Shown here: one piece after another, positions 8,357-41,045 of the stretch
Layout: each line of letters opens with the position of its first letter
Position numbering within the stretch: position 1 is the first letter of the stretch
Assembly: GCA_001724265.1 (NCBI GenBank)
Contig: MEDY01000228.1
Location: 1-47,713, forward strand
Origin: Rhizaria sp. SCN 62-66
Taxonomy: Eukaryota
DNA length: 47,713 bases
Reading direction: 5' to 3'
Position numbers and translations under genes: made by a program
The notes under the pieces: generated by a model
Databases searched by the model: none
The model's input: the letters and a program-made list of their open reading frames with translations, nothing else
Told to the model about the DNA's origin: nothing

Positions 8357-11300
8357 ATGTTGTGGCCGCCGCCTCGCACGTCTTGTGCTCCATTACGCGG
8401 TGTGCGTGCACTCAACATTACCTTTGTTGGATTACTTGTTCTCTTTGCGCAATGCTGCTTTGCTGCACTTTCAACTCCGGCAGCCGCTGCCGCCTCAGTC
8501 TCGCCCTCGGCCTCTGCTCCCACTTCTGCTCGCCCTGGGCGCGGTCGGGGCGATTCATTGCTTGAGACTGGTGCACGCCCCCGCATAACGCCCCTTCGCG
8601 CTCGCGTTGCCCGCGTAATCTCTCTGCACTCCGCTGAGGTTGACGTAAACTCGGCGTTGCGCTCATTGCGCGCTCAGGCCATGTCTCCTGCAACAGCTAC
8701 ACCTATGTCGCGCTTCTCTACAATGGCTCAACGCAACCGCCCTCAGTCAACACATCGTGAGCAAACGCATGCGACGCCCGGACGCATGTTGCATACGCTG
8801 TCTCTGCATGATGGTCGCCGCGTCGCGGTCTCCGTTCCGTACAAAACCTTCTCACCGCCTGTCACCACTGCCACAAACAATGGCGCGGGCGCGAGTTTAA
8901 GCGCTTTCTCGACATTATCAAGCAATAGCGCTGCCGCTCATGAGGGTACTAACACCGATGACGGGAAGCTGCAGCAGTGGCTTGTGCACGTTGCGGGTCC
9001 CGTTTCTCACCACACACGCTCTGCGGTATGTCGGTCGTGGCTATTTTTTTTTCAAGTTGAATTTGTATGAAGTCCGGAGAACTATATTTTATGTAAGAAT
9101 TTTCTCACGCTTATTTCACTGTTGCGACTTGATGATTTGTGACATGTTAGCTGGCTTCAGTTGTACCAGGCGTCGTTGTCGGAGACTATCTTCCACAGAA
9201 CACGTACCACGTCCTTGCAACGGAGCAAGCAATGTCTACTTTACTCAGCCACACGCAGAGCATCTTTGACACTGCCAATACCCAACGCTTTAGCTCTGCT
9301 TCTGAGACTCAGAGCAAGACAGCAGCAACGCCGCACGTGTTGTTTGCAATGCATTTACACCCAGAGCTCAAGCTCTCGGACAACACCCTCGCGTTCACAG
9401 CTGCAGCTGACGAACTTAACAGCGTCACAAACACAATGAGCACTATGAACACGGATGTCTCAGTTAGCGCAACTACAAGCGCAGACGCAAGTCTTCCTTG
9501 CGTGCCCGCTGCGCCTGTTCGCCTCCTCGCACACTTAGCTCTCTCTCACCCCGAGAACGCTGACACTGACCTCGCACTGATGCGTGCCGAGGCCGTGACC
9601 GTGCTTGCCTCGGTCTCGGCCGCCGTCGCCGATGCGACCGCGCCTTACGGTATCATTTTAACTCTTCGCCTTGCTAATCGCGGTGGATCCTTACTTTCAA
9701 TCATCATCAATCACAACAACGATGACAAAGACAAGAACAAAAGCGACGATGAAAACAAGAGCGAAGACTCAAGCACATCAAACACACACAGCACGTCAAC
9801 GAATGCTAACAATGAGCAATGCGCCGACGAGAACACCCAACGTGTTCGCGCTGGCGTTGTTGCACGCGCGTTAGCTGCACACCCTCGAGTTCTCTGGGTT
9901 GAGCGCCGCGCAGAAGTTAAGCCGCTCAACAAATTCGCTTCGTTTGTAGTGCAGTCAGGTCGTCCGGAGAGCCACGCGCTGTGGCGTCGCGGCATTGCCG
10001 GCCGCGGACAAGTCGTCGCCGTTGCTGACACCGGTGTCGACCACGACAGCTGCTTCTTCCACGACCCCGAGCGCGCTATTCCGTTTAACAAGTTCGATCC
10101 CGCGCACCGCAAGATCGTTGCGTACCACACAAGCGCGGAGATCACGCCGCGCGACCTCGTGGGCGGGGACCAGATCGACGGCCACGGCACGCACACGTCC
10201 GGCACGGTGGCGGGCGCCGCGATGATCCCTCAGCCGCGCGGCGGGCGCGCGATGACGGCCGCGGAGACAGCGGACGCGGAGGAGCTGGTCACGTACCGAG
10301 GGCTAGTGCATGAGGCGAAGCTTGCAATCTTTGATTACCAGCACCCAACAGCCCAGCCGGATGAAATGGTGCTGCCTGACGACGTGTATACAGACTATCT
10401 CAAGCGTGCCAGGGATGAGTATGGCGTGCGTGTGACGTCAAACAGCTGGGGTGACCAAGTACGTCCTAGCAATACGAATATACATGTGCTGTACATGTAA
10501 TTAAAAATTAAGCATTAATTTTAATTGCAAACAACCCTTAGATGCAGTGTCACATTACGCTAACAAGATTTTTGTGCGATTCTTCTTTGTTACCAGGCTG
10601 GCTTATATGACTCGTTTGCGCGTGCTGTCGACAAGTTCGCTTGGGACAACCCAGATTTTCTCAACTTCTTTGCCGCTGGCAACACAGGCCAGCTTGGCCG
10701 CCTGACCATTGCGTCTCCAGCATTATGCAAAAATGTTGTTGCAGTTGGCAGCACTGCCAACAGCGCACTGTCGTTCAAAGAGCGCGGTATCGATGCCGGT
10801 CTGGAGATCACAACGCGGCCCGCCCTGCTCAAACCCGGCAATGTTAACAGCGCTGCGCTGCCTGCTGTAGTTGGCGTTATACCTGCCGCGTTTGGCTTGC
10901 GCTTCCCCGCCTTGGACTTGCTTGACGACATTGCTTTAATCAACGCCATCCCAGCCGACGGCTGCTCACCGCTGCGCAACGACCCCGCGTCGCTGCAGGG
11001 CGCTGCAGTGCTGGTGCGCCGCGGCAACTGCCGCTTCACGGTCAAGGCAGCTGCGGCGCAGGCTGCCGGCGCCGCGCTTGTGGTTGTTGTTGACGCCGCG
11101 GATTCGCCTGACGGCGCTGAGACTATGTACGCAACCGCTTCAGACACTGGATCTAGTGGAATTAAGCCTGACGACTACGCGAACGTTGCCGCGGTAATGG
11201 TTGAAAACGCGGCTGGCGAGGCGTTAATGCGCTATGCAGGCGTGCGCGTTGGCAGCAACAACGCCACCGAAGGCATCCGCGTCTCAGGACCTGTGCCTTA

Positions 11301-14300
11301 TGTCGCGCCGGGCCACCACGAGTTCCGTCTCTCCGCATTCTCGTCGCGCGGGCCCACCAAGGACGGCCGCCTCAAGCCCGACGTGCTTGCGCCCGGCGAG
11401 TACATTATTTCAGCACGCTCAGACGGCGACTTGCGCAGCTTCCAGTGCTCGACCAACGACGGCTCGACTCTGAAGGCAATGCAAGGCACGTCAATGGCCG
11501 CGCCGGTTGCCGCCAGCGCCGCTGTAATGATCCGCGAGTACCTCATGAAGGGCTTCTACCCCACCGGCACTGAAACCGCGCCGCAAGGTGTGTTTGAGCT
11601 TACGCCCGCCGCCGCGCGGCCAGAGGCTGTTGCGGGCATGCGTGAACACCGGTCGTCGACGGGCGCGCTGATCTCGCCTACGAGCGCGGACGCGTTCGAG
11701 CCCTCGGCCGCGCTCGTCAAGGCGCTGCTCGTCCACTCAGCGGTTGCCGTGGGCGGCCCCGTGCGGTCTGCGGTCTCCAAAACCGGGTTCGAGACCGTGC
11801 CGCCGCCGCCGTCAGTGTACCAGGGCCACGGCAGGATCAAGCTTGACAACGTCCTCACGTTTGCAGATGGCACTGACACCGACTCTGACACAGTCAATCC
11901 TGGTGGCAGCGCTATCTCGAGTGCTGCTGTGCCGCAGCCCTCTGTGTTTATGATGGACTACGCTAGCAATCCTGCAAGTGATGAGCGCTGGTATGGTGGC
12001 CCCACTGCTACAGCTTCCGCGGCGACGGGCGACACACATCTTTACTGTTTCGATCTTGCTCCGCTGATGCGTTCCGCTTTGTCGTCTTACTCAGCAAACC
12101 GCAGTTATAACGTTAGTAGCAACGGTGTTCCGCGTGCCCGGCCGTTCCACAGCGACGGCAACGTCACAGCTGCATTCTACCCATATGCGTTTAGCGCAAC
12201 TGCGGATCCTTATGTTCGCGCTACGCTTGCGTATACTGATTACCCTGCGTCACTGGCGTCAGGTAGGTTCTTGGTCAACGATCTTGACCTTACCGCTGTT
12301 GTTACCGGCGTTTCTAATGGTCCCAACGCTAACGCGGAGGCCGTGGCCACGCGCGGGCGTTCTCTTGCGCGCATGTTTGTCGGCAACGAAGGGGCTGACT
12401 ACGACGGCGCCGGCCGCAAAGACATCTCCGACACGTTCCCCGACGCGACCATCGGCGAGAGCTTCTATGAACAAATCACAAACCTTAACAGTGACCGCAA
12501 CACTGCGCGCGCAGGCTCGTTGCCGCCTCTGCCGGGCGACGCCGCCTCGCGTGCCGCGCGCGGGGGCACGACGTGGGACCACAGCAACAACCTCGAGGCG
12601 CTCACCATCACCGCGACCGATCTGCTCGGCCTCGCCGCGGGCGGCACCGACAGCGCTGCTGCTGCTGACGCGCTTGCCGCTGCGGACGTTTCTGCGCTGG
12701 CTGCCGCGGTGGCGGCGCGCGACTGGTATCTGTCGGTGCTGGTGCACGGCACGGCGGTCCCGCACGGCCCGCAGCCGTTCGCACTTGTGGTATCGACGCT
12801 GCACGGCGGTGTCATCCAGGAAACGCGCCTGCCTGCAGGCCGCTGTGCGCGCGCCGCGGGCGCTGAGCCTGTGCCCACGGTTACCACACCTCCTGCTGCT
12901 CCAACCGTGAACGCAAACGCAAACAGTAGCGGCAATACGAACATCGCTTCCGCTGTTGCTGCCGTCGCCGCAGCTGCAACTGCTGCGGTAACTGCCGCTG
13001 TATCCGCTGTAAACACCGCCATTAATGGCGCTGCTACCGCAGCTGGTGCTTTGCCAGCAGGACTGTCACTTGCGGCGCTGTGCCCTAACGCTTGTTCCGG
13101 TACGTTGGAAAACTCATGTTGCATTAATGCCATGGATTATTTGTTACATTATGTCACTCCCAAAGGAGACATATTAAATATCATAATATTAAATATTATA
13201 AATATTACAATTCAGATCTCACATACGATACTTTTTCTAACGTGCTTGATATTGTGGTGTTGATTTCTACATTCTTCAGGTCGTGGACAATGCGTTTCGT
13301 CTCTCGCGCTGACAAGCGCCGCCGCCGACATTGAGACACGCTCCAACGCCGCCGCGCGTCTGCCAGGCACATCAGCTGGCTGGGGCTGCGTGTGCTCTGG
13401 CCCCTGGGCAGGCGCTGACTGCTCTGCGTCCGCGCGCGCGCTGACCGCCGTGCCCGCCACGGTGTCCGTAGCCGACGCGCTCTCGCTAAACCGTGTCTCA
13501 GTGGCGACGCTAACGCCGGGCCGCTCGCAGTACTTCTACCTGTACGTGCCGCCGGTGCTGCAGCGCACCGTGCCTAGCGCGGACTCGGCCGAGTACACCG
13601 AGGACGGGCTCGTCATCTCCACTGTACGGTTAAGCGACGGCGGTGATGCTGACTACTTCCTCCTCGCGCCTCCCTCCGTGACAACAGATCCGACCAACAG
13701 CGGGCGCGCGCGCATCCGCGTGTCCGCGCTAGCCTCCGCGCAGCACGCCGTTGCCAGCGGTGGCTGGCCCAGCGAGAGTTACTTCTCATACTCTAACGCA
13801 CAGTGCGACAACTGCTTCGACGACCTGCTCGCCGACGCCGTCGAGTCGTTTGTGAGGAGACAACTCATCGAAGAGCGTCGCAACAGCGGCGGCAGTGGCA
13901 GCGCAAGTGCCAGTGCAGGTGACGCCGCGGCTGTGCCGGCGGTGCGCGTGTCACAATATATCCTCGTTCCCTACTCACATTTGCCGTCTGAGGGCGGGTA
14001 TTACAAGCTCGCCGCGCGCGCGGAGTGCTGTGACAACGTCACTGTCGCCCTGACTGCGTCCCTGCCTGGCGCCACTCTTAACACTCTCCCAGGCGGCGCC
14101 TCTGCCACCACAGCCGCTGCGCTTACGAGTCTTTCGACCGCGAATCACATCGCGGCCCTGGTCGCGGACGCCACGGCACCGCACACGCTCGCTGCCGCCG
14201 CCGCTGTCGCCGCCACTCGTGAATCTGCGGGCGCGCCTGGTTTCACCGCTGCGCCCGCGCCAGGCGTGCGCGTGCCCACCGTGCCGCCGCCGTTCCCCGC

Positions 14301-16164
14301 CGCGGGCGCGACTGCCGGCGCAACAGTGACGGCGCCGCCGACTGCAACCGCGGGCGGAGTGACTGTGAGTAACGGGGTGACTGTGAGCACCGCTGAGCTG
14401 CTGCAGGCCGACTCCGCAGGCGGTGCGCTGTCAAACGTGTTGTTGGCGCGCGACCCAGTTGTTGAGCGCGTAGTGCTGAATGCGCTACCGCTGTCGACTG
14501 ACGCGGTCGTGAGTTCAGTGCGGCTTGGTATCGACATGCGCACACTGCCAACGTTCTTCAACACTCTGTTCCAACAAGAGGTGTCTGCGCTGCTCGGCAT
14601 TGATGACGACATCTGCCGCATTGCAGTCGTCAAGACTGAGCGCGTACTCGCGTCAACGCCTTACCCCGAGTATCAGACGATCGATCTGCTTTCAATGAAC
14701 AGCAACGCACACGGCCATAGCATGAGCACTGCGTCTGCGCTGAGTGATAGCGCTGCAGCGCGACTAACTGATCGCATTATGGCGCGCTTTGACCAAGATA
14801 ATGGCCGCGCCGCTCCCACTCAGAACAGCGGCACCGCCGCGCACACTGCTGCGTCAACTGCCGAGAGCGGCGCTGGTCGCGTCTTCAACACAGCGCAGGC
14901 GGGCGCGAGCGGTGGCGCGGGCGCGCGCCGCGTGCTTGTTACATTTGCTATCTTGCCTCCCACCAGCGGCGCCGCGCTTCGCTCCGCCACGCGCGCTGCT
15001 AGCACAAGCGTCGACAATGCAAGCGCGGCGGAGCTGCTATCGTGCTCCGAGACGCCCGCGCGCTTCTTGAGCGGCGCGAGTGCGACTGACTTGCATAAGA
15101 TGCTGTCGAATGCGTTCGAGTTGGCGCAACCATCGTCGTCGTTCTCAATCTTTAGCGCAAACTCGAACAGTGCAAGCAATAACGGTAACATCAACACGAT
15201 GCGTACAATGAGCGCGAACCCCGACATTGCTCACAGCCACAGTAGCGAGCCCGATAGCGCGCATCAGAACAGCTTTGCCGCGCTTGCCGCTCGCGCCCGC
15301 GCTCAAGGTCTGAGTCACAGCTCCGGCCGCACGCACACCCACTCCACACTGGCGCTTCCCGCGCTGCTGCCTCTATCCGCGCTGATTATGACGCAGGCCG
15401 ACCCACAGCACCGCCCGCCGCGCGCGCTGACCGCAGCCACACTGTGCTCCGACGGTCTGTACAAGCTTATCTGCAACAGGAGCTTTAACAGGGCGGCTGC
15501 GCTCGCGTCGCTTGCTACAGTCGCCGCTACAGGTGCGACTACAACAACAGCTGGCAGCGTGTAGACAACCCGAAGCGACGACTCTAGCCCCAGCTCCAGC
15601 GCGGCATCAACAACTGGCACAAACACTTATCCGGCCACCGACAGCACGAGTAACGACGTGAGCAGAGACAACAGTGCAAGCGGTGACAACGGCGGCAGCA
15701 ACAACGGCGTTGGCAGCGGACTGGGCGTCGACGGCGAGTCCCTCTTCGGCGACTCGTTCTTCAGCAATTACCTCGCCAACCTCAACCGCAACGGCAGCAC
15801 CACGAACAAGGTGAAGCACGCGATTGATTTTGTGCAGGGGCTCAGCTACGGCATTATCGCGCTTGCGGGCCTTGCTGCCATTATTGCGGGCGTCGCGGGC
15901 TTCTTGGCCTGTCGCCGCTCTGCGAACGGTCTCAACAGAGAAAATCACGGCAGCACGAGCAGCAACAGCGTGAGCCATATCAGCAACAACGTGAGTCTCG
16001 ACGGCGTCACCGGCGAGGAAGGAGAAGAGCTTGCGTTGGCACAGAGACCCAGCGCGCGTCCGCCGCCCGGATACGTGCGTCCGGGGGCGCCCGCAGTGCC
16101 CGCGGCGGCGTCGGAAGACGGCAACTTGGAGCTCTTCGAGATGGCCAGACGCGGAGATTTATAA
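8357..16164 (+). CDS. Large subtilisin-like S8 serine protease (KP-43/Dictyostelium Tag-like) with PA insert, EGF-like domain and C-terminal TM; join(8357..9025,9151..10458,10597..13099,13280..16164), ~2454 aa including an in-frame TAG at 15562-15564
   Basis: Hydrophobic signal-like segment (ITFVGLLVLFAQCCFAA) and prodomain-like GDYLPQNTYHV. Catalytic triad motifs VAVADTG, DGHGTHTSG and QGTSMAAP, plus SNSWG, FFAAGN, FSSRGPTKDGRLKPDVLAPG and PSAALVKALLV. PA motif LVRRGNCRFTVK and EGF-like CPNACSGRGQC...CVCSGPWAGADCS. TM segment GIIALAGLAAIIAGVAGFLAC lies after the TAG; if TAG terminates, the CDS ends at 15564. Confidence 0.88.
9026..9150 (+). other. Intron 1 of subtilisin gene (125 nt, phase 0)
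   Basis: GCG|GTATGT...TGTTAG|CTG. Of the three nearby AGs I checked, this is the only one that keeps the frame. Confidence 0.75.
10459..10596 (+). other. Intron 2 of subtilisin gene (138 nt, phase 0)
   Basis: CAA|GTACGT...GCTAAC...TTACCAG|GCT. Splicing gives SNSWGDQ-AGLYDSFARAVDKF. Confidence 0.9.
13100..13279 (+). other. Intron 3 of subtilisin gene (180 nt, phase 1)
   Basis: G|GTACGT...TCTAAC...TTCTTCAG|GT. Splicing restores the EGF motif CPNACSGRGQC. Confidence 0.9.
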
Positions 16165-31145: not shown

Positions 31146-34100
31146 TCACTCTTTGGAGCTCTTAAAATCTTCCGACAAGAAGTACGCAACAGCATCATAC
31201 TTGTGAATAGCCGCGTCAAATGTCCGCGTGGACACCGCACCCGAGCGCACGAGTTCCTTCAAGTGTTCGCGCGCCGCATCGTCGGTCATCTGCCGTTGCC
31301 CCAACACACGCAGCAACACAGTCAGTCCAAGCGGCGGCGGTCCCGCACCCGGCCGCGCCGCCGACGCGATCATCGCCAGAATATCCGCCGTGGGCTTCTT
31401 CATCAGCGTCAACAGCATGCCGGTCTGAACCGCCTCTGGACAGGCCGCAAGCACGCGCACGTCAACCTCTTCCTCAAACGCTTGCAGCAGGTTCGTCACG
31501 TCGGTATCAACAATCCCGCTCGCGTCCATCGGCGAGATCGCGCGCGCGCCAAACACCAGCACCCAGAACAGCGCGCGGTGCGTCTCAGCGTACACTGCGG
31601 CGGCCGCGGCGGCGAACAGCGCCTCCGGTAGCGCGGCAGACAGCGCGTCAAGCGCTGCGTCGAGCTTCGCAATGAAGCGGCCGGGGCCCTGCAGCGAGCC
31701 CCGCAGCGGCGCGGGCAGGAACGCAGTGTCCAGCAGTTCCGTCCGCAGGTCAACGTAAATCAGCCGCGCCGCCAATTGCAGCAGCAGCGCCTGTCGCGCT
31801 TCCGCAGCAGCCGTCACGGCCGCAGCGAAGGGGCCCGAGACGGCTGGCGCGGCCGAGCCGCCGCCCCGTGACCGCTGGCCGATCGCGCTCACACGAGCGC
31901 GCACGGGCGCGGGCGCTGGTGCGGGCAGGAGACGCGTAAGCACGCCCACGGCCGCCGCAGCGGTGACGGTGGCGTTGGTCGTCGCCATGGCTGAGGCGAT
32001 CACCTTGCCGGCCTTGGTCTGCGGCGCGCTGGCACCGACACTCGCGGCGCTGTTGGCGGCCGCGATGGCGGCGGTGGCGGCGGCAACCGCGGGCGGAGAC
32101 AGCCAGTGCGCGAGCGCGGGCTTGTAAAGCCCCGCAGCCGACGGCACTGGCGCGCCCCACGCCTGCAGCCCGGGCGCACCGCCGTCGCCGGTGTGTGAGC
32201 CCGCGTCGGCGTCAGCGCGCGCCATGGCGCCCGCGGCGGCCTCGACGGCGAGCCGGTGGACCCACTCGCCGTCCTTGACAGGCCAGCCGTCCGCGGCCGC
32301 GCAATCCAAGGCCGCGGCGCTATCGCCGCGCGCGTCAGCCGCCGGGGCCCAAACCTGCGCGCCGCCGGCCGCCAGCGCCGCGCCCCAGTGCTCCTCGGCC
32401 GCCGCAGCGAGCGCGGGCAGCGCGTCGGCGGCGTCGGCGACGGCCTTGAGGCGCGCGCACAGCACGGCCACGGTCGTCTCGGGCGCGGTGAGCCGCGTGA
32501 CGCCCGCGGCGCGCGCAGCAGCCAGCGGCGGCATCGGCACGGGCCGTGACGTTATCTGCAGGTTCGCGCCGCCGAGGATGGTGGACTTGCGCTTTGGGAT
32601 CGGCGCGACGCCCTTAAGCACCGCGGGCCGCAGCGCCTCGGCCGCGCGCGCGCCGCCGCCCAGCGCCGCGACGGCCGCAAAGAAAGATGACAACACGCGC
32701 GCGCACGCCTCGGCCGCAGCAACGGGGATGGCCATCGCCCACGCCCCGCCCGCCGCGGCCACTTCACCATGTGGCGAGGTCGCGCGGCCGCTCATCGACA
32801 CCGCGGCGGCGTTGGCGGCGGCCAGCGCGCGCCGCAGCAGCATTACCGTGTCGTCGCCCGCAGTCGCCTCGCCGCGCGCCCGCTTCGCCTCGCCCTTGGC
32901 GGACTGCGGCGCGGACGGCTGCGCGGGCGGCGCGAGGAGGCGGCCGGAAGCGACCGCGAATGCGCCCGCGTACGCTGGGCTCAGACTCAGGGCGCCGCCG
33001 GGCAGCAGCACGGCGTCATCGCGCAGCGCGCGTGCGACGGCGGCGGAGAGCGCGCCCTCGAGCCGCGCCTGCCAGGCCGCGATGAGCGCCGCGCTCAGCA
33101 GCGGCAGCGGCGGCGCGGCGGCGGCTAATGGCGCGAGCGCGTGTGGCGGCAACGCCAAAGCGCGCGGGGCCGCGGTCAGCGCTGCGGACGCAGCGGCGAG
33201 TCCCGCGAAGGCCGGCAGCGCGCCGTGGGGAAGCGCGCGTGGCAGCGCGGGGGCCGGCGTGGAAGTGCCGCCGCCGACGCTCGCGACGCCATCAATGACC
33301 TGTGTTACGGTGACGACTGTGGGAACGGGGACGGAGGCTGCAGCGCCACCGGAGCCGGAAACAATCGCTGGCGCAGAGACAGGCAAAGTCGGCAGCGCAA
33401 GCGCGGCGACGGCAAGGGCGTCGTAGCGCAGCAGTGCGGCCCAGCCTGCAAGCGCACCGAGCGAGCCTGGCAACGCAGCTTGCGCGGCAGACGCGAGAAC
33501 GGCCACCGACGCAGCGCGCGCAGCGAGCGCGGGAGTCACACCGCGCGCGCGGGAGGCGAGCCACAGCGACACGCGGTGACGCGCGCCGTGCGCGGGCGTC
33601 AGCGTCAGGGTGTGCGTGCGCTCTGCAAGCACGGGGATGCCGGGCAGCAGAGGCACCACAGACGTGGAGCTAGCGGATGTAGAATGAGGCTTGCGTTCGC
33701 GCGCCGTGTAGTTGTCCGCAAGCGGATCACGGTCGTCGTCGTTGTCATCGTCGTCGTCGTCAGAGTCGTTGTTCTTGTTGTCGTCGCTGTCATCGCCGGG
33801 CGCGCCATCGCCGCCTTCGCTCACTGTGACAACGACCTCGAGTGTGGCACGCGCCTCAGTCAACGCCTGTGCACGCATCGCGGTCGCGACCGCAGTCTCC
33901 GCCGCGGCCAGAGCGCGCGCTGCGGCGGCGAGCTCGTCCGAGTCCGCCGTCGACGACAGCAGCGCGCGCGTGCGCACAGATGCGCGCGCCGCCGCAGCCG
34001 CCCTGCGCCCGCCGTCGCTCGGCAGCGCACACACCGCCGCCGCACGCGCACGCAGCACAACGGGCGCGGGCGCAGAGAGACGCGGGTCCGCCGCCAGCGC

Positions 34101-37100
34101 CACAGCGGCAGCAGGCAGTGTAGCGCCTGAGGGCAGCAGCGCGCGCCACTGGGCGGGCACAGTCGCGAGCGCTGCCGTGGCCGCTTGTGTGGGCGACTGA
34201 GCAGGAGTGCCACCGCTACTCGTGGCAGCAGTCTCAGGAGCGACACAAGCCAGCGTCTTAGCGAGTCCCGAGAGCGGTGTCAGGAAGGCGCCGTCAGGCA
34301 GCACGGAGCGCGCACGTGCAGGCGGTTCCAGCAGCGGCGGCAACGGCGTGCCATCTGCCGCAATCTCACCAGCAGCGACTTTCTTCTTGGCTCCGCTGTC
34401 GCTGACGCTGGTCGTATCGTCACCGAGGAAATTGGCCAGATCGACCTCACCTTCGTCATCGTCCGCGGCTATGTCGTCATGGCCCGCCGCAGCTGCAGCG
34501 GCCTTGGCAAAGCCGCCGCCACTCTTGATGGCGGCTACAGCGCGCTTGCCGGCCTTGCCGCCCGCGGCGACTGCGGCGATCGCAGCAGCGGCGGCGACGC
34601 GGTCGGCGCGCGGGAACGCGGCGTCGTACGCCAACGCGGCAGACACAGCCGCAAGTGTGAGCGCAAGGCGGTCGCCCGCATCAACGGCGGCTGCTACTGC
34701 TGCTGCTGCGGCGGCGGCCTGGGCCTGGGCCGTGGCAGCCGCCGCGGGCGCAGTCACTCCGGCAGCTGCGAGGGCAGACGCTGCGGTCGACAGCGCGCGC
34801 AGCAGGGCAGCGGCAATGCCGGCGTGCGAGGTCCGCGGCGGTGCGCGGGACAGCAGTGCAGTGCCTCCGCGACTGGCAGCGCAGATATTCGAGGTTGTGC
34901 TCGAACTGAAGCCTGAACTAGAACCAGAGCTTGAACCATTGTTGGCGTTGGGCTTGCGAGGAGTCTTGGCGAATAGGTTCGCAAACGCGGCGTTGCCGTC
35001 CTCATCATCGCTATCGGCCGCGGCAGCGCTCTTGGCGGCTGGCGTCGCAGCGGGTGCATTGCTGCTGCCACCGCTGTTAACGCCAGCGAGTGTGCGGGGA
35101 GCGGAGCAAACGCGCCCGTTGATGCGGAGACGCCAGAGACAGTCAGACGCCTCTTCGTCAGCGCAGTCACGCGCCCATGACGCAGGCGCTGCAGGTGGGC
35201 CACGCAGCCGCGGCGCAGGCGCGCTGCCAGCCACCCCAGCGTGCGTCGCGTCCCAGCCCGAGGGAAACAGCGCGGACGTGGCGTCCGCAGTGGTCTCCGA
35301 AGGCACGGACACGCCCTGTGTGGCGTTTGCCGCGGCCAGCGCGCCCGCGCCACCGGGTGCGTTGTTCTCGGCCGCAGTGGGCTCCAGGCGCGGTGCGTCG
35401 TTGCAGTCCGCGACGGTCGTATGATAGCGTCGCATTGCGCTGGCGAGCAGCCAGAATTCGACCGCACCGCACGCCGCGTCTGCCGCAGCGAGCGCGTCAG
35501 GCTGGGCGTCGGCAAGAGCGCGCGCCGCAGTGATGTACAAAGGCACTACCGACGGCGCAGCTTCCAGGTCACCGGAGAAGGCCACGGACGCGCGACGCAG
35601 TGGCGCAGCCGCGGCCGCAGGGAACGACGGCGCGCAGGCCGGCGGCAGCGCCCAGAGCCAGGGCCCGGAGAGACAGTCCGCGTCGAGCACCTCCGTCTCA
35701 GAGAGCCGGTCGCCGCGGACCTGCGACAGCCACACACGGCGGCCCGCGGCGGCGGCGGCCAGCGCGCACGCAGTGGGGCTGACGCCGAAGCCCGGTGCCG
35801 CCCGCGCCAGCAGCGCAAACACGCCCAGTGCGGCGGTCCGCAGCTGCAGCACCGGACCGGGCTTGGCCAACGAAGACTCGCCCTTGTCAGTAGCAGCCGT
35901 GGGACTGTCCTCGTCGCCGTTGCCGGAGCCGCCACCACGCTTGCCGTGCGACTTGCCGCCGGAGCCCTTCTCCTTCTTGTCCTTGCGTTCCTTGCGCTCA
36001 CGCTTGTCCTTGTCCTTCTTGCCCTTGCCGCGAATCTTGCTAGTCTCGGCCGCGGTCGGCGTGGGCGCGACAGCAGTTGTGCCGTCATCGTCGTCGTCAT
36101 CGCCGTCGTCGCCACCCGCATCGTCACCGTCGCGGTCAGCGTCCTCGAGCGCCAGCTCGTGCAGCCACCACAGCAACGCGCGGCCCAGCTGGGGCGGCAC
36201 GCCGGCCCAGCGTTCGCCCGTGGCAGCACTGCCCGCGCCCGCAGTCGGGCTCTTGCTGGGAGACGCGGTGTCGAGCTCGCTGCCGCTGGAGCGCGCGGGC
36301 ACGGGCTCGGCCTCGGTCGCCGCGCCCAGCGCAAGCAGGCCGGTCAGCACGCGCTGCAACGGCGCCCGCATCGATCGCGGCGCACGCCATGCGCCCTCAA
36401 CAACAACGCTTGAGTTAGCACCGAGAGCATGAGTAGTTTCATGATCCTCATCGTCGTCGCCATCGGTGGTCTCGTCAGCTCGCGACTGGCCGTCAGAGCC
36501 GAGCCTGGCAATAACAGCGTCAAGCTCAGTCACGGACGCCGCAAGCGTCTTCGCGCCGCGCCCGGCGGCCTGCTTGACGCTCGCAGCGGGCTCAGCGTTC
36601 TTCGCACCGGCGATGGGGGTGAACACAAGCACGACGTCAGACTTCTCGTCTTCCTCCATCAAACGTGCGGTCCGCGCCAAACGTGCACGCAGCCAGCGCA
36701 GCATGGCACCGCGTGCGGCCTCCAGCGCGGACAGCACGGCGCCACATTGCTGCAGCAGCGTACGCGCCGCCGCAGCCACCGTGCTCACGTTCGCTCGAGT
36801 CTCGTCATTGAGGCCAGGCAGCAGCAGGACATCGAGGCCGCCCGCCTGCCAGCCGCGCGCCGCGCTGAACGCGCCGGCGCCGCTCGACGCACTGGCAGCA
36901 GCCACAGCGTTCGCGGCAAGCAGCACAGCGGCGGCACGCAGAAAGCCGAGCTGTTGCAGCGCCCACATGGCGTATCCCGTCGAAGCGTGCACCGCGCCCG
37001 CCTCGCGGCTCTGCACGCGGCCGCGCGCGAACGCGTCTGCGCTCACGGTCACCGCGCGCAGCAGCGCAGCAGTCGCAGGACCGAGCAGCGCCGTGGCCGT

Positions 37101-39513
37101 TTCGTGCGCGGCTGCGTCGCCCGCAGCGCCCGCGCCGAGCGCCTCCGCGGGCGCGCAGAGCATCGCGTGCACGCGCCAGGGCAGCGCGGGGGCCAGCCGG
37201 CCGGCGCCCGCAGCGGAGGCGCGGTCGAGGCTGATGCCGACGCCCTCTTCCAGCGCTTCGGCGGCCGCGGCCAGCGCCTCGCTCGCGCCCGCGGCGTCAA
37301 TGGGGCTCTTGCCGGTCTGCGCGAGCACGACCGCGGCGGCGGACTCCGCGGCGCGCGCCGAAAGCCGGCCGCCGAGCTGCGCCAGCCACTCAGACTCTGG
37401 CGCGGACAGCGCGGGCGCGGCGAGCGCGAGCAGGCGCGCAGCCAGCGGCGCACGCGCGCAGGGCGCAAGAGACCCGCCGGCCGAACGCGCGCGCATCGGG
37501 GCGGCCGTTTGCAGCCGCAGCAGGCGCAGCAGCGACGGCACGCCCACAGGCGGCACCTCGGGCGCGGCGCCGGGCGCAACAGCGACGCCGGACTTGACGA
37601 GCGCAGAGCCCATTCCGGCACCGCGTTCGTCGCCTGGGCTGCTGCTGTTGCCAGTGCCGGAGCCCGAGCCTGCGGCCGCGGTGGCAAGCAGCGCCTGCTC
37701 AGCAGCGAGCGCGCGCCACGCGGCGCTCGGCAGGGCCCAGCCACTCACCGTGCTGCTCCCGGTGCCGTTGCTACTCGTGCTGCTGGCAACGTTACTCGGC
37801 GCAAACGGGCAGTCTGAGTCAAAGCCCAGCGCCGCCCGCGGCGCAGGGCACTCCGCTGCGGGCTGCGACGGAGGCAGCGCGAGCACCCAGGTCAGCGGCG
37901 GCGGCACCGTGTCCGGCAGCGCCAGCGCGCCCGCCGCAGCGGCCACGCCAACGCCGGGCGACGGCGCCTCGCTCGCTGCTCTGGCGCCAGCGCTTGAGCC
38001 CGCACTGGCGCTGGCACTGGCGATGGACTCAGCGGCTGCAAGCGCGGATGCAAGCATGTCTGAGCCTAGCGGGCGCGCGGCGGCGGCGCGCGCAGCGGCG
38101 GCCAGCGCTGCCGCAGCGCGCGCGTCTGCGCCCACTGTCGCGAGCGAGCGGGCGGTCTGCGCGGCCGCGGCAGGCGCGCCGGCAACGCCAGCGGCGGGCA
38201 GCAGCGGCAGCGCGAGCTCGGCGGGTGGCGGGCGCGCGGGCAGCGCAGTGGCGGCGGCGGAGGAGTAATACTTGCATCCTGAAGCCAGCGCGGTCACGGA
38301 CAGTGCGGAGACTGCAACGGTGGCGGCGGCCGCGGCGGCCGCGGGCGCACGAGAGCTCGCGCGCATCGGGCCTTGCCACTGCTGCAACGTCGCTGTCGAC
38401 GTTGACACTGACGTCGAGGTAGCAGCAATCAAGGACGAAGGTGCGGAGGAGGAGGAGGAAGTGTAAGCAGAAGGGGTGTTTAAGGGGGCGCGACGCGAAG
38501 CTTCCACGCGCGAGACAGAGCCGTTAGAGCTCTGCCCCGCAACGCGGGCAGCCGCCTCAGCGGACCCCCTAGAGGTCTGCTCGCGCGGCTTAACTTCGTG
38601 TCCGACCCCGGCCCCATTTCCCGAAGCTGTGGATCCCCCTTTCTTGTCGTCTCTAATTCCTCCTCCTCCTCCCCCTCCTCCTCCTCCTCCTCTGTCATCA
38701 TCGGCGTCGTCAGCGTCGTTCTTGTCCTTGTCACCGTCATTGCTGTCGTCACTGTCGTCGAAAGGGTTCAGTCCGTCGAGCGCAGACGGCGCGGCAGGCA
38801 TGTCCATGCTGTCGTCGCTGTCGTCATCGTCGCTAGCAACAATCTTATCACGAGCTGTGGCGGACTTAACAGCAGCAGCAGCAGCAGCACCGACAGCGCC
38901 AGCAGCAGCGGCATCGTTGCTATTGTTGTTGTTGTTGTCAGCGTCTGACTAGTCTTCCGAGACGATCTCGACGTCGTCGCCATCAATGCTCTCAACTTCG
39001 CCGTCATCAGCGCCAGCAGCCACGGCACCAGCAGCGCCCGCAGAAGCAGGCGCACCAGCGGTAGCAGGGGCGGCGCTATGATGGCCGCCGTCGTCGTCGC
39101 TGTCGTCGAAGGGGTTGCTCGCCCCGGCAGCGGCAGCGCCAGCAGAGACAGCAGTAACGGCGGCCGCAGCAGCATCACCAGCGGCAGCAACAGCGGCGGG
39201 CGGAGCAGTGATCCTGCTCTTAGCGGTCACACTGCTGTCGACATCCTCAACCTCCTCACCGTCGTCATCAAACGGGTTACTCTTGCCTTCCTTGCTCTTG
39301 TTGATGCTCTTGCTCCTGCTCACATCGCGCGCGCTAGCAGCAGCGGCAGCACCGGCGGTAGCGCCGGCGGCGACGGCAGCGGTGGCAGCAGGGAACTTGG
39401 GCTTGGCGAACGGGTTCACGGCAGGCACGGCCGGGGAGCTATTACCATCATCGTCGTCAGAGTCGAAGGGGTTCGCGCTGCTGTTATTCGCAGCCGCAAC
39501 CGCAGTGGGAGCC

Positions 39514-39547
<34 letters not shown>

Positions 39548-41045
39548 CACCCGTAGCAGCAGCAACAGCAGCGGTGACGGTGTCGGGCTCCGAGTCGAAG
39601 GGGTTACCAGCGCCGTCGTCACCGCCGTCGTCGTCGCCATCATCGTCGTCGAACGGGTTGCAGCCTGCACCGGCGCCGGCGGTCGTATTCTCGTCGCCGT
39701 CATCGTCGTCAAACGGGTTCGAGCCAGCGCCGGCGCCGCCGTTGCTCGCGGGGGCACTTTGGTCCTCGTCGTCGAAGGGGTTCGAGCTTGCAGCGCGACT
39801 GACGCTCGGCTTCGCAAGTCCGCCAGCCCCAGCAACGCCAGCAGCAGCAGAAGCGGCGCCAGCGGTAGCAGCAGTAGCGGGCGTGGTCTTCGGCGCTGGC
39901 ACGGGCCGCGCCGCAGCAGCACTCGCACGAGTGCCAGACGTGGCGGCGGACGCAGCGGAGTTAGGCTTGGGCGCGGGCACGGACCTAGTGCGCTCTGGCG
40001 TCTTCATAGCCGCGGTGCCCAGGGCAACAGCAATAGCGCCAGCGCCTGCAGCGGCGGCGGCAGGCGCGGGCACGGGCCGACCGCGCGCGGCTGCAGTGGC
40101 GGCGTTGGCGGCGCGCGCATTCACCGCGAGCTCGGCAACAGGGTCCACGCGGGCCGCGGCGGCGAGCGCGGTTGAGGTGGCGGCGGCGGCCGCGGCGGCC
40201 GCGGTGGCTGCAGTGGCTGCAGGTGCGTGTGCGTCGATCGTCACCAGCGCGGCAACAAGCGCGCGGTGCGTGGCGGCGTCGGCCATGAGCGCGCTGCTCA
40301 CGGTCACCTCGGCGCCGGCCTCAGCGCCAGCGGCGGTGAGGGAGCCGGGACTACCGCTGCTACTGTGGCCGTGGGCGTTCACGGGGCCGGGGGAGCTGGC
40401 GGCGAGGCGCGCGCGCAGAGTCGCGATCGACGTCGCAAGGCGCTCGGCGGCGGGCGCGAGCAGGTCCGCGCTCAGCGCCTCCAGGGCCTCGCCGCGCGCG
40501 CGGGCCGCGGCGGCCGCGGTCGCGGTGGCGGCGTGGAGGCAGCTTGTGGCGGCCGCCAGCGACTGGGGCGCCGCGGCAGCCGCCGAGGACGCCGGAGACG
40601 CGGACGGCGCCAGTGCGGCGACGGCGGCGTCGGTGGCCGCGGCCAGCGCGAGCTGAGCCTGTGCGAGCGTGGCCAGCGCGTCGGCGACAGCGCCGGTACG
40701 GCGCGCGCTTGCACTGGCGGCATCGAGCAGGACGGAGAGGGGGGCGCGGGAGAGCGCAGCGGTGGCGGCAGGCGTCGCGTCGGCAATCGCGAGCGCGGCG
40801 GCGGGCGGCAAAGCCTCGACGCGGCAGGGGTGCGCGGTGGCGAGGTCGGCGATCGAAGGTGCGAGTGCGGGCGGAGCGCGGCCGAGCAACGGCAGCGCGC
40901 AGAGCTGGCAGTAGACGGCGCGCGCGGCACACTGCTGTGCGCCGCATGTGAGGCAGTGCTTCACCGCGTCCGCCGACAAAACAACGTCTGAGGCGCCCCC
41001 GGGATCGGGGCCGCGACCAGGCGGGGCGGAAGATGCGGTGGGCAT
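31146..41045 (-). CDS. Giant (~3299 aa) NPF-repeat protein with C-terminal PATROL1/Munc13-like MUN (MHD) region; single frame with an in-frame TAG at 38949-38951
   Basis: ORFs 38949..41150 and 31146..38807 are in the same frame and separated only by one TAG. N-terminal CLTC...CAARAVYCQLC and nine NPF motifs spanning the TAG. The C-terminal motifs RLIYVDLRTELLD, FIAKLDAAL, ALFWVLVFG, DVTNLLQAF and LLRVLGQR...AAREHLK resemble, from memory, the MHD2 region of plant PATROL1/DUF810. Ends in TGA. Confidence 0.72.
38750..39790 (-). repeat. Dispersed protein-level repeat NPF(D)(D/S)xD, 9 copies
   Basis: SNPFDDED, SNPFDDDD, CNPFDDDD, GNPFDSEP, ANPFDSDD, VNPFAK, SNPFDDDG and SNPFDDSD precede the TAG; LNPFDDSD follows it. 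Confidence 0.9.

Follow-up and report, generated by a model that had tools for sequence, protein, structure and literature searches.

UAG as a proposed rare sense codon, probably for glutamate, in a GC-rich protist genome

The present study analyzes a long gene with an NPF repeat array that is divided by an in-frame TAG. The window is the whole stretch of DNA analyzed, 47,713 nucleotides, and makes up all of contig C228 of assembly G000 (34.9 Mb, 714 contigs). Patterns in the window and in further loci of the assembly are consistent with a nuclear code in which UAG is a rare sense codon, mainly for glutamate and without real termination, and in which UAA and UGA are the stops. We consider this code likely and regard it as close to certain that UAG is read as some amino acid; the assignment to glutamate is the less sure of the two. 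Reassignment in nuclear genomes almost always affects UAA and UAG jointly, and the few UAG-only exceptions test why this is usually so (PMC5304391, PMC11687900). If true, the present code extends the UAG-only reassignments by a further amino acid, with codon sites, tRNA gene and release factor change supplied together by one assembly. Given the rarity of UAG, visual inspection would not reveal such a code, and genes annotated in the standard way, including that of eRF1 itself, would be cut short.

The NPF-repeat gene and its in-frame TAG

The TAG lies on the minus strand in the context GAA GAC TAG TCA GAC. The features of the gene, and the one other in-frame TAG of the window, are as follows.

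38952 to 41045, minus strand: codons 1-698, with an N-terminal Cys-pair motif, an Ala-rich region and NPF motifs 1-8 (Pfam NPF PF16601, E 5.7e-5, below the curated cut-off)
39093 to 39116, minus strand: eighth NPF motif, NPFDDSDD (sequence)
38949 to 38951, minus strand: in-frame TAG, codon 699, most likely Glu (identical bases in run X3)
38808 to 38948, minus strand: 47 coding-like codons from the TAG to the next ATG (codon score +21.6; no stable 3′ structure, z +0.51)
38745 to 38768, minus strand: ninth NPF motif, NPFDDSDD, identical to the eighth (sequence)
31146 to 38948, minus strand: remaining 2600 codons, ending in TGA, with a read-through product of 3299 aa (open frame)
31368 to 31841, minus strand: helical domain at the C-terminus, resembling PATROL1/MHD2/Sec6 (tethering-factor fold), no more than a lead (below the Pfam cut-off with PF25761, E 3e-5)
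15562 to 15564, plus strand: in-frame TAG in a subtilase (S8/PA) gene (codon score +11.4)

The original prediction was that the two open reading frames on either side of the TAG are one gene with a translated UAG, and this is supported, although the decisive evidence (stop census, TAGs in eRF1 and kinases, CUA tRNA, eRF1 Thr32) comes from outside the window. The upstream part is 698 aa long from the ATG at 41045, the 733 aa first given being the stop-to-stop codon count. NPF motifs start at 39782, 39719, 39659, 39605, 39473, 39416, 39278 and 39116 before the TAG and at 38768 (residue 760) after it; eight motifs had been claimed upstream with a ninth, like the eighth, about 60 codons on in the same frame, and the measured distance is 61 codons. 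NPFDD occurs six times in the frame of this gene, and the six-frame translation of the G000 DNA analyzed, about 2.0 million residues, has just one further occurrence (locus L001 there is a duplicate of the window), so that continuation of the array across the TAG is not a matter of chance. The 141 nt past the TAG had been described as GC-rich and coding-like against AT-rich spacers. Their coding character is borne out by a codon score of +21.6, as opposed to -11.7 to +8.1 for equal lengths after nine TAA or TGA gene ends of the window, but the compositional contrast is modest (56% GC compared with 37-51% in nine other spacers).

The TAG is real and did not arise by an error of assembly. In run X3, which belongs to study P2 and is separate from run X1 of study P1, the possible source, contig 4 is colinear with the window over 38949-39500 and 37621-38862 with 0 differences, the 86 bases between the two matches having been skipped as repeat. 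In record 13 of run X4 the aligned piece starts at 38952, adjoining the TAG, though 53 more letters exist, and this may reflect masking or a variant at the codon.

An alternative explanation could be that the standard code applies and that the TAG is a local matter, i.e. a nonsense allele, a short intron ending in TAG, a boundary between two genes or a site of programmed readthrough. We find this extremely improbable. Short in-phase GT..TAG pairs (15, 24 and 48 nt) are present and would fit such an intron. However, the four real introns of the window are GT-AG introns of 140-223 nt with pyrimidine tracts and 30-39% GC, while the 100 nt upstream of the TAG have 64% GC. A splice junction removing the TAG, one of the outcomes against which the original prediction was to be judged, was checked on the DNA, and no GTA donor, the usual type in this genome, lies within 300 nt upstream. 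Leader addition by trans-splicing, another such outcome, is unsupported as well, the genes alternating between strands and having cis GT-AG introns. No stimulating structure was found 3′ of the three TAGs examined (z +0.51 at this one), no leaky context is common to the TAGs (of 30 TAGs, 13 have C at +4, 7 have G, 6 have A and 4 have T), and the identical TAG in a second study (run X3) argues further against a local accident. Also on the side of the standard code are a broken paralogue, L119, indicating that pseudogenes do occur, and the frequent coincidence of TAGs in Pfam matches with intron acceptors or introns (6 of 11 in kinases and the single cases in kinesins and in DEAD proteins). It would nonetheless leave three observations unexplained: a CUA tRNA, gene ends that are never TAG, and a TAG within the sole eRF1 gene found.

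Because UAG appears to be sense genome-wide, as judged from the census, eRF1, the CUA tRNA and TAGs at glutamate sites, 41045-31146 is most likely one gene of 3299 residues. Since no listed RNA contig crosses the TAG (the poly(A) run X7 has pieces on either side), we infer from the DNA, rather than observe, a single transcript across it. The read-through protein is Ala-rich, and its nine NPF motifs, a type of motif bound by EH domains, lie in a stretch that is acidic and probably disordered. For the last 160 residues Pfam gives a weak PATROL1-like match, below cut-off, the PDB no match, and the Atlas neighbours in PATROL1/MHD2, Sec6 and Vps53 clusters (top 0.93-0.94, with recognition low at 1414). 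An NPF protein with a tethering-factor-like domain at its C-terminus may act in vesicle traffic, for instance in tethering or recycling, which is at most a lead.

Stop codons, release factor and CUA tRNA

The stop census covered about 0.96 Mb (about 3%) of G000, in partly overlapping loci many of which were chosen around tRNAs and kinases, with ends defined by a codon model and not by homology. It gave 144 stop-type codons with coding up to them, or 73 after removal of those near a splice donor. Among 47 clean gene ends, with AT-rich DNA behind, 27 were TAA, 20 were TGA and none was TAG, a weak result by itself in so small a sample (p 0.09 if TAG ended just 5% of genes). GC-rich DNA free of TAA and TGA for 40 codons followed 13 of 14 TAGs, compared with 2 of 59 TAA or TGA codons (Fisher p 1.7e-11).

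In-frame UAG was found within conserved coding sequence of eRF1, four intact kinase matches, the APE site of a NEK kinase, and MORN and EFHB-like proteins. Eleven of 142 kinase profile matches contained a TAG, five of them exonic, four intron acceptors and two intronic; kinesins (54 matches) and DEAD proteins (43 matches) had one TAG each, both intron acceptors, and thus no exonic case. All TAA and TGA codons inspected inside kinase matches lay behind a splice donor, no exonic in-frame TAA or TGA was found in the intact genes inspected, and there was no sign in these of UAA being read as an amino acid. One of the five exonic kinase cases, L119 with three TAGs, was dropped from the code sums because a TAA and a shift of frame interrupt it. 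L119, L120 and L121 form a TAG-rich family combining a kinase with repeats that we take to be Sel1-like, and L120 and L121 seem intact apart from their TAGs. The subtilase gene of the window (S8 and PA, 9232-16164, plus strand) has two introns; its TAG is followed by 199 codons that include a hydrophobic, membrane-like helix, with the first Met at 192 and no usable start.

The family search for eRF1 in G000 gave three matches, namely one eRF1 on contig C63 and two other exons, presumably of Pelota. The eRF1 gene ends in TAA and contains the following feature.

L009:1594-1596 (G000:C63), minus strand: in-frame TAG in the N domain of eRF1, mid-exon (aligns with human Glu107, E107)

If UAG were a stop, eRF1, an essential protein, would end within its N domain. 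In 117 homologues this column holds E in 106, D in 10 and V in one. The N domain is also altered at stop-binding residues. The G of UAG is contacted by Thr32, which is replaced in Iotanema (Thr32Gly) but kept, as part of GTS, in its standard-code relatives (PMC5304391, PMC9161772). The G000 protein has Thr32Ser in GTS (0 of 117 homologues), Gly57Ser (0 of 117), Thr58Lys (1 of 117) and Lys130Gln (0 of 117), and keeps E55, L69, S70, Y125, C127 and F131, leaving YxCxxxF intact. Its closest relative, P0004 (84%), keeps Thr32, has Thr58Lys in common with it and has Val at the TAG position, and would be a suitable outgroup for dating the change of code; in a tree of 30 rows the G000 eRF1 joins one protein on a long branch. 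Locus L189 is the same eRF1 locus (100% over 1626 nt), genomic and possibly not independent. Exon 2 of eRF1 has one TAG among 13 Glu-type codons, for which lock-in, feedback or chance are all possible. A second, apparently independent change of the GTS threonine would make the proposal that loss of Thr32 uncouples UAG from UAA testable in yeast or lysate.

A single candidate suppressor tRNA gene was found.

G000:C84:76008-76080, minus strand: tRNA gene with CUA anticodon (pattern search, ARAGORN, Rfam)

It folds into a full ARAGORN cloverleaf, matches Rfam RF00005 with 58 bits (cut-off 29) and has a T-run behind it, and the surrounding DNA has 63% GC and genes like those of the rest of the genome. 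A search for Glu-type acceptor ends gave ten matches and none in the control: eight Glu(CUC), one Glu(UUC) and this gene. No tRNA with a UUA anticodon was seen among these ten or among tRNAs called in the fetched loci. The CUA tRNA is identical to Glu(CUC) at 47 of 73 ungapped positions (64%), sharing acceptor pairs one to five as well as the T-stem, and the two anticodons are one base apart. Alignment scores were 68 with Glu(CUC), 51.5 with His, 50.5 with Glu(UUC) and 30 with Gln(CUG), in a comparison with 11 tRNAs that lacked several isotypes and with 63 of 506 candidates scored. The ARAGORN label "Pyl" follows the anticodon alone and was rejected given the RF00005 match and Glu-type stem; pyrrolysine and programmed readthrough were likewise set aside for UAG, the tRNA being Glu-type, the three TAGs having no 3′ structure and the +4 bases being mixed. 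A first tRNA pattern, with a gap one base longer than the CUA tRNA allows, found no suppressor in 29 of its loci and two more, and pattern matches on contigs C441 and C79 were not tRNAs. The tRNA-Ala genes (L013, L016 and other loci) start with GTG, where tRNA-Ala usually begins GGG, and tRNAs of this genome are generally divergent.

A mechanism that would connect these observations is that the CUA tRNA derived from tRNA-Glu by one anticodon change, would be charged by GluRS and would pair with UAG and not UAA, while Thr32Ser in eRF1 would remove the contact to the third-position G and so weaken recognition of UAG. One consequence would be the single 3299-aa gene at 41045-31146. UAG itself is rare, about 30 candidate TAGs as against about 7,300 GAA or GAG in the training set of the codon model, or some 0.4% of glutamate codons, a rough figure as the two sets are not identical. 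AT pressure is not the driver since the genome is GC-rich. A tentative and rather unlikely extension is that the code has been caught early in a GC-rich protist, with one diverged suppressor tRNA, UAG at less than 1% of glutamate codons and a UAG in the eRF1 gene itself. If this were true, that UAG would lock the code in; negative feedback is also possible if eRF1 still fires at UAG, as a eukaryotic counterpart of the autoregulation of bacterial RF2.

Alternatively, UAG may be ambiguous, a leaky Glu/stop codon that selection holds at low frequency, at which the CUA tRNA competes with a partly terminating eRF1 and the UAG of eRF1 may act in feedback. We judge this quite improbable. The low frequency of UAG would fit it, as would the presence of one tRNA-CUA gene beside eight Glu(CUC) among the ten Glu-type matches, the retention of a hydroxyl in the change from Thr to Ser at eRF1 32, and the distribution of exonic TAGs, five in kinase but none in kinesin or DEAD matches. 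Partial termination is harder to reconcile with the absence of TAG from all 47 gene ends, with the occurrence of the codon in a gene that is essential and at a kinase position that does not vary, and with the lack of a common leaky context in the +4 bases; moreover, AT-rich codons are scarce in this genome anyway (TTA 22 and ATA 7 of 11,929).

The amino acid and the known codes

Three conserved sites give glutamate. These are eRF1 107, the NEK kinase (L167/L171), in which AP-TAG aligns with SPE of Nek7, i.e. the Glu of the APE motif, and the EFHB-like protein, in which NYGN-TAG-P corresponds to NYGNEP in the sole homologue found (68% identity). The MORN site does not; there 18 homologues, aligned over the N-terminal part, have K in 6, R in 6, H in 3 and E, Y and F in one each. 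Summed Pfam bits over six sites, with 8 of 20 residues tried and L119 left out, were E 427.2, K 424.1, Q 423.0, S 418.7, D 416.1, Y 414.8, L 414.3 and W 409.1; with L119 included the leading sums were E 467.7, K 464.9 and Q 463.6. The margin of 3.1 bits of Glu over Lys rests on the APE site, and without that site the sums tie (K 358.0, E 357.5, Q 356.8). In the Pfam screen of 30 TAG segments six had a match, few with the TAG at a conserved column. Elsewhere the evidence is mixed: CaMK1D has Tyr at the L112 site, in-genome paralogues at other TAG sites have Q, D, W, L or T, and a flank-context score that placed M, Y and Q above E was uninformative. A count of APE patterns (9 matches, 11 in the control) was at chance level and was rejected, with only L167/L171 being translated, which is a kinase. 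Many of the TAGs may be one-step mutants of CAG, TGG or AAG codons at positions under little constraint.

The chief competitor for the identity of the residue is glutamine, as in Iotanema, or a Glu/Gln mixture produced by a mischarged CUA tRNA, which we think improbable. Of 33 hand-picked TAG sites, three of them in L119, six (18%) lie within Gln tracts, a location shared by 3% of GAA/GAG and 30-35% of CAA/CAG codons; one paralogue has Q at each of two sites, Q exceeds E at the MORN site (47.6 and 46.7 bits), and glutamine is the commonest published UAG-only change (PMC11687900). However, CAG becomes TAG by a single transition, which would probably make TAG frequent in loosely constrained Gln tracts whatever its meaning. 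Glutamine is opposed by the Glu acceptor stem of the CUA tRNA, unlike the Gln tRNAs of this genome, by the APE site (E 69.7 compared with Q 66.2 bits), by the EFHB relative, which has E, and by eRF1 107, where Q occurs in none of the 117 homologues (a distant metagenome locus, L194, does have Q).

Among published codes, UAG-only changes are to Leu (rhizarian exLh, ciliate MAGs), Gln (Iotanema, several ciliates) and Ser (Scotinosphaera) (PMC5304391, PMC11687900). UAG as Glu has been reported with UAA as Lys and UGA as stop in Oligohymenophorea sp. PL0344 (PMC10553269), and UAA and UAG are both Glu in peritrich ciliates and Blastocrithidia (PMC11687900, PMC12153298). A nuclear code with UAG as Glu and UAA as a plain stop was not found in the literature searched, mainly open-access papers. 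The closest parallel is Iotanema spirale (UAG Gln; UAA and UGA stops), in which UAG alone is likewise reassigned, UAA and UGA end genes and the GTS threonine of eRF1 is changed (PMC5304391, PMC9161772). The two differ in the residue (Gln in Iotanema, most likely Glu in G000), in the substitution (Thr32Gly and Thr32Ser), in the CUA tRNA gene, found in G000 and just predicted in Iotanema, and in frequency, UAG being far rarer in G000 than in Iotanema (204 in 126 genes). The codes of exLh (Leu), phyllopharyngean ciliates (Leu or Gln) and Scotinosphaera (Ser) are also UAG-only with UAA kept as a stop, and in the ciliate MAGs the CUA suppressor derives from an ordinary tRNA, as is proposed for G000 (PMC5304391, PMC11687900). 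In contrast to the Leu and Ser codes, Leu lies 12.9 and Ser 8.5 bits below Glu at the six sites of G000. PL0344 reads UAG as Glu through CUA tRNAs derived from tRNA-Glu and uncoupled from UAA (PMC10553269), but has UAA as Lys and 10 CUA tRNAs, whereas in G000 UAA is the commonest stop (27 of 47), one CUA tRNA was found and UAG is rare. In peritrichs and Blastocrithidia a tRNA-Glu(CUA) also reads UAG as Glu (PMC11687900, PMC12153298), but both UAR codons are Glu (in Blastocrithidia with UAA dual and UGA Trp), and G000 showed neither exonic in-frame TAA or TGA in the intact genes inspected nor, among its ten Glu-type tRNA matches, a UUA anticodon.

The organism and other loci

G000 represents a GC-rich eukaryote, probably a flagellate, as suggested by its cis GT-AG introns, the abundance of kinesins and the presence of proteins of EFHB and MORN type. 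The only 18S gene found (L221:459-4903, contig C706) is divergent, contains four group I introns and has 40% GC compared with 59% in other loci; it may belong to another, co-binned organism, e.g. an amoeba. Its first insertion has room for an open reading frame that may encode a His-Cys homing endonuclease. The G000 DNA analyzed yielded neither a polyubiquitin junction nor a marker motif. Locus L078 (G000:C3:10001-20000) holds three ubiquitin-like copies that end RGG-HPQ-stop and have NK in place of the GK usual in ubiquitin, two of them with internal deletions. Long exact pieces of the genome occur in 4 runs of 3 studies, and the organism recurs in wastewater and bioreactor runs and therefore should be reachable.
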